The position numbers and the translations under genes are program-made. This document shows positions 44,273 through 44,344 of a stretch of DNA of 64,000 nucleotides, piece after piece. The DNA comes from a virus, in IMG/VR virus record IMGVR_UViG_3300023178_000030, positions 14,963 to 78,962 of that record; one strand, given 5' to 3'. How positions within the stretch are numbered: the stretch's first letter is position 1; each line of letters starts with the position of its first letter. A model generated the notes under the pieces. That model was not told where the DNA came from, made no database searches, and was given only the letters and a program-made list of their open reading frames with translations.

Positions 44273-44344
44273 TTACTTGTTTGCAATGTACATTGTAACT
44301 TCAAAACCAAATCTCATTTCAGTATATTCTGGTGACTTCCACAT
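44273..44344 (-). CDS. pqqA: PQQ precursor peptide PqqA (23 aa), not in ORF track
   Basis: Translates [23 protein letters not shown] with the E-x-x-x-Y core; RBS AAGGAG; own terminator. Confidence 0.95.
   Translation of the reverse strand: [23 protein letters not shown]

Follow-up and report, generated by a model that had tools for sequence, protein, structure and literature searches.

The window analysed here is a stretch of 64,000 nucleotides that corresponds to bases 14963-78962 of the IMG/VR viral contig IMGVR_UViG_3300023178_000030, which is 78,962 bp long, approximately 53% complete according to CheckV, and has a G+C content of 31%. It contains a very short gene, pqqA, on the minus strand, and the called genes that flank it (43165-43749, 43820-44164, 44437-44670, and 44774-45022) are all on the plus strand. 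The features of the locus are the following:

43820..44164, plus strand: convergent neighbour, encoding a hypothetical protein of 114 aa with a weak, sub-threshold gp53-like Pfam hit
44216..44260, minus strand: intrinsic terminator, formed by a 13-bp G+C-cored hairpin (44225-44250) followed by a T-run, 21 nt past the stop codon
44266..44365, minus strand: putatively captured cassette, comprising the Shine-Dalgarno (SD) sequence, the coding sequence, and 7 nt, with 90% DNA identity (blastn) to the pqqA of three bacterial contigs (L277-L279)
44273..44344, minus strand: pqqA coding sequence, 23 codons plus stop (72 nt, ATG to TAA)
44352..44357, minus strand: SD sequence AAGGAG, 7 nt upstream of the ATG, as read from the sequence
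44366..44436, minus strand: AT-rich spacer upstream of both pqqA and the divergent gene at 44437-44670, presumed to be the promoter region of pqqA
44437..44670, plus strand: divergent neighbour, encoding a hypothetical protein of 77 aa

Translation of 44344-44273 yields a 23-aa peptide, exactly as given in a first-pass annotation of this DNA, which had proposed that the 72-nt minus-strand ORF encodes PqqA, the precursor peptide of the redox cofactor PQQ. The ORF is also present in a mechanical ORF list built with a 20-aa threshold. An HMM search, which had been suggested as a check, supports the proposal with both curated profiles of the family: PF08042 (the PqqA entry of Pfam) is covered over positions 1-19 of 19 with 38.5 bits, against a gathering cut-off of 21.1, and TIGR02107 (an NCBIfam equivalog) over positions 1-21 of 21 with 44 bits, against a cut-off of 20. 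In a six-frame scan of the whole 78,962-bp record with the PqqA profile, this ORF was the single match (E = 8.5e-10) and is, thus, far beyond what would be expected by chance.

In PQQ synthesis, PqqA is bound by PqqD, and a Glu and a Tyr of the peptide are cross-linked by the radical-SAM enzyme PqqE; PqqB, PqqC, and peptidases then process the product. One PqqA peptide is spent per PQQ, and its N-terminal leader is the part recognised by PqqD. In the phage peptide, the core RFGFEVTMY is intact (E15-V-T-M-Y19), including Glu15 and Tyr19, the residues that become PQQ, and the N-terminus reads MWKSP, which agrees with the M-W-x-x-P leader of the family. Its length of 23 aa and the Glu-x-x-x-Tyr spacing are also those of PqqA. 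An RFGFEVTMY-type core is found in all 129 cellular and approximately 120 viral copies collected, although the search patterns required this core. On the basis of these sequence features, the phage peptide can be assigned to the PqqA family.

The reading of the locus as a lone reversed gene among plus-strand genes, with an AAGGAG ribosome binding site and its own terminator, was likewise confirmed. A similar purine-rich, SD-like motif is found at a similar spacing ahead of most of the at least 120 viral pqqA copies described below. Downstream of the gene, the hairpin core (44225-44250) has a folding energy of -14.4 kcal/mol, and the 58 nt past the stop codon, folded as RNA, reach -18.6 kcal/mol, compared with -7.3 ± 2.3 kcal/mol for 200 shuffled versions (z = -5.04), none of which was as stable. 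A and T runs flank this palindromic terminator on either side, which means that it can also stop transcription of the convergent gene on the plus strand (43820-44164). Upstream, the AT-rich spacer (44366..44436) is conserved within the phage's own lineage (contigs L271-L273 and L275). A scan for consensus promoters listed no minus-strand site from 44345 to 44436; the best candidate found by eye in the spacer is GTGATT-17-TATATT, with 8 of the 12 consensus positions.

The genes that surround this locus are those of a large phage. The contig encodes a T4-type DNA polymerase (phrog_262, 1053 bits), a primase, both RNR subunits, a tape-measure-like protein, a baseplate tail-tube cap, a wedge subunit, a tail protein, and a cell-wall hydrolase. 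The best match of the DNA polymerase, at 68.1% identity, is its counterpart in the OM43 myophage Melnitz, followed by those of cyanomyophages (53%). In addition, a baseplate block at 34295-40454 of the window is collinear with 58264-64328 of Melnitz-1, with 46-71% amino acid identity. By these comparisons, the contig is a Melnitz-like T4-type myophage. Its pqqA is bracketed by phage genes, namely those for baseplate cap, wedge, and tail proteins on one side (37461-40454) and that for the DNA polymerase on the other (53297-55825); viral genes are therefore present on both sides, as expected of an auxiliary metabolic gene (AMG), and the cassette recurs with its flanks in four more metagenome contigs that belong to this lineage. 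The site itself lies in a hypervariable region of small genes of this T4-like genome, where only 2 of approximately 25 ORFs have counterparts in Melnitz. Near-identical DNA is found in salt-marsh metagenomes (96-99% of sampled words), and about half of the sampled words are also found in estuarine and seawater metagenomes from several studies.

Other parts of the phage genome also deserve mention. A 783-aa protein encoded at 4302-6653 has strong hits to cytidyltransferase-family PHROGs (phrog_3041 and phrog_395) and lies near a 416-aa phrog_455 protein (2656-3906); together, they may form a nucleotide-sugar or DNA-modification module. A 204-aa ORF at 45747-46361 has a weak, sub-threshold hit to 2OG-Fe(II) oxygenases. 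A 2OG-Fe oxygenase is annotated in the same variable region of Melnitz, with no tblastn match to the 45747-46361 ORF.

No pqqB, pqqC, pqqD, pqqE, or PQQ-dependent alcohol dehydrogenase gene was found in the 79-kb record, which represents approximately 53% of the genome. The absence of these genes from the record agrees with the earlier suggestion that the phage supplies the precursor only. Genomic association with pqqB-E is, in any case, not strict for this family, as most host pqqA copies are also dispersed away from pqqC. A similar picture is obtained with other viruses. pqqC is absent from 50 other pqqA-bearing IMG/VR records, 8 of which are at least 90% complete, in a search that found this gene in four of five candidate host genomes used as a positive control. 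Melnitz-1, MEP301, Venkman, and P19250A, whose genomes are complete, have neither pqqB, pqqC, nor pqqE. One of the 50 viral records also carries a gene for a PQQ-dependent enzyme. This record (IMGVR_UViG_3300025120_009955) is a 72-kb fragment of a large phage, 20% complete according to CheckV, with a full-length ORF for a PQQ-dependent alcohol/methanol dehydrogenase at 34049-35731 (628 aa; TIGR03075, 608 bits against a cut-off of 480) and a stand-alone pqqA at approximately 41.9 kb, about 6 kb from the dehydrogenase gene.

We consider it quite probable that the window carries a functional pqqA, that is, a moron-type AMG that raises or sustains the supply of precursor for host PQQ synthesis during infection. 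The gene would have been captured in the form of a short cassette, consisting of the SD sequence and 23 codons, from a host that produces PQQ, and it would now constitute a separate transcription unit of a Melnitz-like myophage, reversed and with its own terminator. During infection, host ribosomes would make the peptide, the chaperone PqqD of the host would bind it, and the host's PqqE would cross-link Glu15 and Tyr19. The cross-linked product would then be trimmed and oxidised to PQQ by PqqB, PqqC, and peptidases, again those of the host. With one peptide used per cofactor, the phage would be adding precursor to a pathway in which hosts multiply only pqqA. As a result, periplasmic PQQ-dependent (XoxF-type) alcohol/methanol dehydrogenases would stay loaded, and energy would continue to flow while the phage replicates. 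We infer that the peptide is translated and processed to PQQ, with a timing and an effect that benefit the phage; it might also replace host pqqA mRNA lost at shut-off, as the first-pass annotation had assumed.

In favour of this role, the dosage of pqqA matters to hosts as well. Three copies are found in genomes of only 1.2-1.3 Mb and seven in M. flagellatus, and 3-12 copies of pqqA against a single pqqBCDE have been described in hosts (PMC4109929). For instance, in Ca. Methylopumilus universalis, pqqA is found at positions 416135, 457453, and 1186264, and pqqC, at 577431, is far from all three. A tandem pair of pqqA genes separated by approximately 110-125 nt is observed in two of three genomes of 1.2-1.3 Mb, namely the UBA4017 and TARA MAGs. 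Nevertheless, PQQ is a stable cofactor, and it is not obvious that new synthesis becomes limiting within one latent period.

Stand-alone pqqA genes are frequent among viruses. A degenerate DNA pattern for R-x-G-F-E-V-T-M-Y matched at least 120 contigs of IMG/VR, and in 119 of the 120 contigs listed the motif lies within a PqqA-type ORF of 23-24 aa. A tblastn search of viral sequences with the peptide, another check that had been suggested, returned relatives in 12 GenBank phage records. Among them are MEP301, MEP401, MEP402, Venkman, P19250A, and four Melnitz isolates, all cultured phages of Methylophilales or Methylophilaceae; pqqA is present in all cultured OM43/LD28 phages returned by this search, most matches having no annotated feature beneath. 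Four records of cultured methylophages were inspected, and none has an annotation for pqqA. In Venkman, MEP301, and P19250A, its position is devoid of features, while in all four Melnitz records it lies under a feature labelled 'hypothetical protein', which in Melnitz-1, the one inspected, is an antisense ORF. The Melnitz-1 gene (MZ577095.1) is at 74848-74943 on the plus strand, just before a tRNA-Leu gene, and encodes a peptide of 24 aa. Since pqqA is too short for gene callers and is unannotated in the four methylophages inspected, surveys of AMGs undercount it.

The viral copies bear the marks of selection. Among 105 distinct viral DNA versions, pS is 0.53 and pN is 0.15, which gives a dN/dS of 0.18, as computed on the 14 codons left free by the search pattern, with synonymous sites near saturation. 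In addition, W2 and P5 are invariant in these 105 genes, even though the pattern did not require them, and positions 3 and 4 are variable (T/K/N/S and K/T/S, respectively). A dN/dS of 0.18 indicates that viral pqqA is under purifying selection for the peptide and, together with its presence in unrelated phage types, that it is maintained by selection, as would be the case for an AMG. The architecture of the viral loci is also not that of ordinary genes. pqqA is reversed with respect to both neighbours in 38 of the 106 loci with called genes on either side (36%), compared with 69 of 1466 ordinary genes from the same loci (4.7%) and 8% of ORFs of up to 100 aa. Similarly, a hairpin of -6 kcal/mol or lower followed by a T-run is present within 90 nt of the stop codon in 65 of 124 loci, compared with 10 of 124 random positions. 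The arrangement in the window, that of a lone reversed gene followed by a terminator of its own, is, consequently, a recurrent design, which is typical of morons expressed apart from phage operons.

The origin of the allele in the window was examined in cellular genomes and metagenome contigs. The 11-letter form of the peptide singled out in the first-pass annotation as betaproteobacterial occurs in at least 120 places in species-representative genomes. Among the matches listed, nearly all are in Methylophilaceae, with a few in Burkholderiales and Rhodocyclaceae MAGs, and to this extent that attribution stands; the likely donor or host, however, is not a sequenced member of Methylophilaceae. 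The peptides that dominate among viruses agree in every letter with those that dominate in Methylophilaceae, and the commonest viral form is the 23-aa peptide of pelagic OM43 and Ca. Methylopumilus, 17 of whose 23 residues match the window peptide. At the DNA level, the pqqA of the window has at most approximately 85% identity to any sequence in 301 Methylophilaceae genomes. Recent capture from a sequenced member of this family was, thus, rejected, the more so as the bacterial contig described below is also unlike 361 species representatives of the family.

A scan of metagenome contigs for the exact allele returned 13 contigs, in which the gene is found in three contexts. The first is the phage's own lineage, represented by L271, L272, L273, L275, and, more distantly, L276, all with the same flanks. 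Here, the pqqA block is 97-98% identical, compared with 75-86% for adjacent genes. The second context is an unrelated phage of approximately 39% G+C (L102, L269, L270, L280, and L281), which shares with the window phage only 79 nt at 95% identity (44270-44348); in this phage, pqqA lies directly behind the major capsid gene, between two G+C-rich hairpins. The third context, of approximately 30% G+C, consists of L277 (Ga0160423_10001562), L278 (MDTG01111912.1), and L279 (Ga0181568_10308224). In these contigs, pqqA is followed by genes for PqqB (400 bits), PqqC (330), PqqD (79), and PqqE (505), and a PedC-type ABC transporter, pyrD, and dapA are also present. By this gene content, they are pieces of a bacterial chromosome with a canonical pqqABCDE operon.

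Among cellular copies, the pqqA of this bacterium is the nearest to that of the window. The similarity stops at both edges of the cassette (44266 and 44365), and the window peptide differs from that of L277 and L278 only at two N-terminal residues (K3 and S4); in one contig of the phage lineage (L273), the peptide is exactly that of the bacterium. The G+C content of the bacterium, approximately 30%, equals that of the phage. Compared with 361 species representatives of Methylophilaceae, L277 has 63-70% DNA identity, in the pqq genes only, and PqqB, PqqC, and PqqE of this type are 57-70% identical to those of assorted Burkholderiales and Pseudomonadales MAGs. Therefore, we infer that a marine bacterium of approximately 30% G+C is the likely donor of the cassette and a candidate host of the phage; it may represent a streamlined PQQ producer that is yet to be described. 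The presence of a full pqqBCDE set behind this nearly identical pqqA also agrees with the earlier proposal that host PqqB-E are used. In the case of the second phage, the 79-nt cassette is 100% identical to the bacterial one, which suggests a very recent host-to-phage transfer. One contig, L274 (Ga0123365_1131052), joins the upstream flank of the L102-type phage to the bacterial pqqB-side flank at the shared cassette. It is a probable assembly chimera at a repeat, possibly a real recombinant, and it was set aside as evidence.

Shared DNA between a phage and a bacterium may also be the trace of an attachment site, in which case a temperate phage would integrate into host pqqA and carry a copy of the target that restores the gene. 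Phages often integrate into tRNAs or small genes, pqqA occurs in several dispersed copies in hosts, and recombinase genes are found near pqqA in some siphophages. For the window phage, such an origin has a negligible probability, given a T4-type genome, a group known to be strictly lytic, and an identity of only 90% to the nearest cellular copy (and at most 85% in the 301 Methylophilaceae genomes), when an attachment core would be near 100%. Furthermore, the gene is complete, with its own SD sequence and start codon, and its position differs between the window phage and Melnitz.

The small size of the cassette raises a different possibility, namely that pqqA is a neutral passenger, an intact scrap of recently captured host DNA without effect for the phage. 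Only 100 nt are common to the bacterial copy, and the gene sits in the hypervariable region where turnover of small genes is fast and Melnitz counterparts are few. This explanation is improbable because of the selection signal, as a dN/dS of 0.18 was obtained over 105 viral versions with nearly saturated synonymous sites. Moreover, no fewer than five unrelated cultured phages and 120 contigs have retained pqqA, the gene in the window has its own SD sequence and terminator, and within the lineage the pqqA block is far better conserved than the genes adjacent to it.

A functional peptide need not be a substrate. It could instead act as a decoy or regulator that binds host PqqD, PqqE, or a sensor and blocks or re-tunes PQQ synthesis, or it could have another RiPP-like role. 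Both departures from the host peptide, K3 and S4, are in the N-terminal leader, the part that PqqD recognises, although positions 3 and 4 are variable among viral copies anyway. By contrast, Glu15, Tyr19, and the whole RFGFEVTMY core are intact, and many viral copies, including that of a close relative of the phage, are identical to host peptides, when an identical peptide can only be a substrate. Because of this identity, a decoy or regulator seems very improbable. In effect, phage peptides that are identical or nearly identical to those of hosts would have to enter the same pathway, in line with the preferred reading of pqqA as a supplier of precursor.

Transcript data were also considered, since four metatranscriptomes contain parts of the window. 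For the bin 44273-44539, the summed depths are 625, 6185, 3213, and 33 in these datasets, with values of up to approximately 50,000 at position 44303. Massive expression of the phage gene was, nevertheless, rejected as an explanation, as the deep RNA belongs to other pqqA genes. In one metatranscriptome (X20), a piece of approximately 35 nt at a depth of 50,000 accounts for the mean depth of the bin. The loose ends at 44288 and 44322, which consist of 21 unlike letters and an Illumina adapter, agree with a piece limited to the conserved core between these two positions, and the unlike letters read ...MYVCNK*, from another pqqA of the OM43 type. Other RNA contigs run into the operon terminator of the L274/L277-type bacterium or the flank of the L102-type phage; for instance, a contig of a second metatranscriptome (X21) extends into the upstream flank of this phage. 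The OM43-type pqqA contigs (...MYVCNK) have k-mer depths of approximately 50,000 in X20 and 24,000 in X21, both of which are salt-marsh metatranscriptomes of approximately 390-400 Mb. Hence, pqqA mRNA appears to be among the most abundant transcripts in these salt-marsh waters, an abundance that fits a heavily used consumable. In a third metatranscriptome (X19), two contigs (44155-44333 and 44305-44675, at a depth of 8-9) join the coding sequence to the lineage's own flanks. This depth is like that of other phage genes (4-13), the contigs carry no strand or level, and carry-over of DNA into the RNA library is possible. These contigs are compatible with transcription of the phage pqqA, which is thus possible.

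The abundant coastal methylotrophs derive their energy mainly from PQQ-dependent (XoxF-type) methanol oxidation. In OM43 strain NB0046, the gene with the highest expression is xoxF (PMC5120137). If phages routinely top up the PQQ consumable, methanol oxidation would continue in infected cells, with consequences for estimates of marine C1 turnover. A broader reading, offered tentatively and somewhat doubtful in our view, is that pqqA is a freely exchanged and near-universal moron of the phages of PQQ-dependent methylotrophs, the equivalent of psbA, with the precursor as the truly limiting component. In the same reading, the cassette would mark an unrecognised marine PQQ-producing host of approximately 30% G+C, outside sequenced Methylophilaceae, with Melnitz-like myophages as well as the unrelated phage with capsid-linked pqqA among its viruses; transfer from host to phage would be ongoing, given that the bacterium and the second phage have 100% identical 79-nt cassettes. 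For the contig analysed here, the cassette provides a lead to the host beyond the reach of protein-level phage taxonomy.

A similar strategy is that of psbA (D1) of cyanophages, where the phage duplicates a rapidly consumed component of the energy-harvesting machinery of its host, which supplies the rest. The analogy is functional only, as protein and pathway are unrelated, and the expression of psbA and its benefit during infection, unlike those proposed for pqqA, have been established experimentally. In terms of homology, a comparison can be made with bacterial PqqA (PF08042/TIGR02107) and, in particular, the orphan copies of Methylophilaceae, which have the same length, W-x-x-P leader, and E-x-x-x-Y core and are likewise located away from pqqBCDE (see also PMC4109929). 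Unlike them, the pqqA of the window is in a lytic phage genome, with a phage-like G+C content of approximately 31% and lineage-specific flanks.

Viral pqqA has been known since 2020, and the window provides one more case. PqqA was described in VP_266, a population of Methylophilaceae-infecting viruses from Lake Baikal, and was proposed to be an AMG for PQQ-dependent methanol oxidation (Coutinho et al. 2020, Microbiome, PMC7678222), while virus-encoded pqqA, pqqD, and pqqE have been listed among phosphate-solubilising AMGs (2026, PMC13188868). In both VP_266 and the window phage, a phage-encoded PQQ precursor is proposed as an AMG. However, VP_266 is from freshwater and also has a methanol dehydrogenase gene, whereas the window phage is a coastal-marine, Melnitz-like phage with pqqA alone and an allele probably from a different, low-GC bacterium. 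The pairing of a dehydrogenase gene (xoxF) with pqqA in the 72-kb phage fragment described above is the same combination as that published from Lake Baikal.

Cultured OM43/LD28 phages (Melnitz, Venkman, MEP301, MEP401/402, and P19250A) likewise have a stand-alone pqqA of 23-24 codons, which in Venkman and MEP301 is reversed with respect to its neighbours, as in the window. In the paper on Melnitz, PQQ is mentioned only as a supplement of the medium. Melnitz is the closest cultured relative of the window phage, yet its PqqA is only 64% identical, compared with 74-78% for other cultured phages. Moreover, the pqqA of the window is located between genes whose Melnitz orthologues are at 67.2 and 69.3 kb, while Melnitz itself carries pqqA at 74.9 kb, in the reverse direction. 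Considering this non-collinear place, the opposite orientation, and the identity of 64%, the two copies, although both within the hypervariable region of small genes, are non-orthologous, and the window pqqA was probably acquired or replaced independently of the Melnitz copy. What is particular to the window is, therefore, a Melnitz-like lineage from salt marshes, a non-orthologous, reversed cassette, and an allele common to a low-GC PQQ producer and an unrelated phage.
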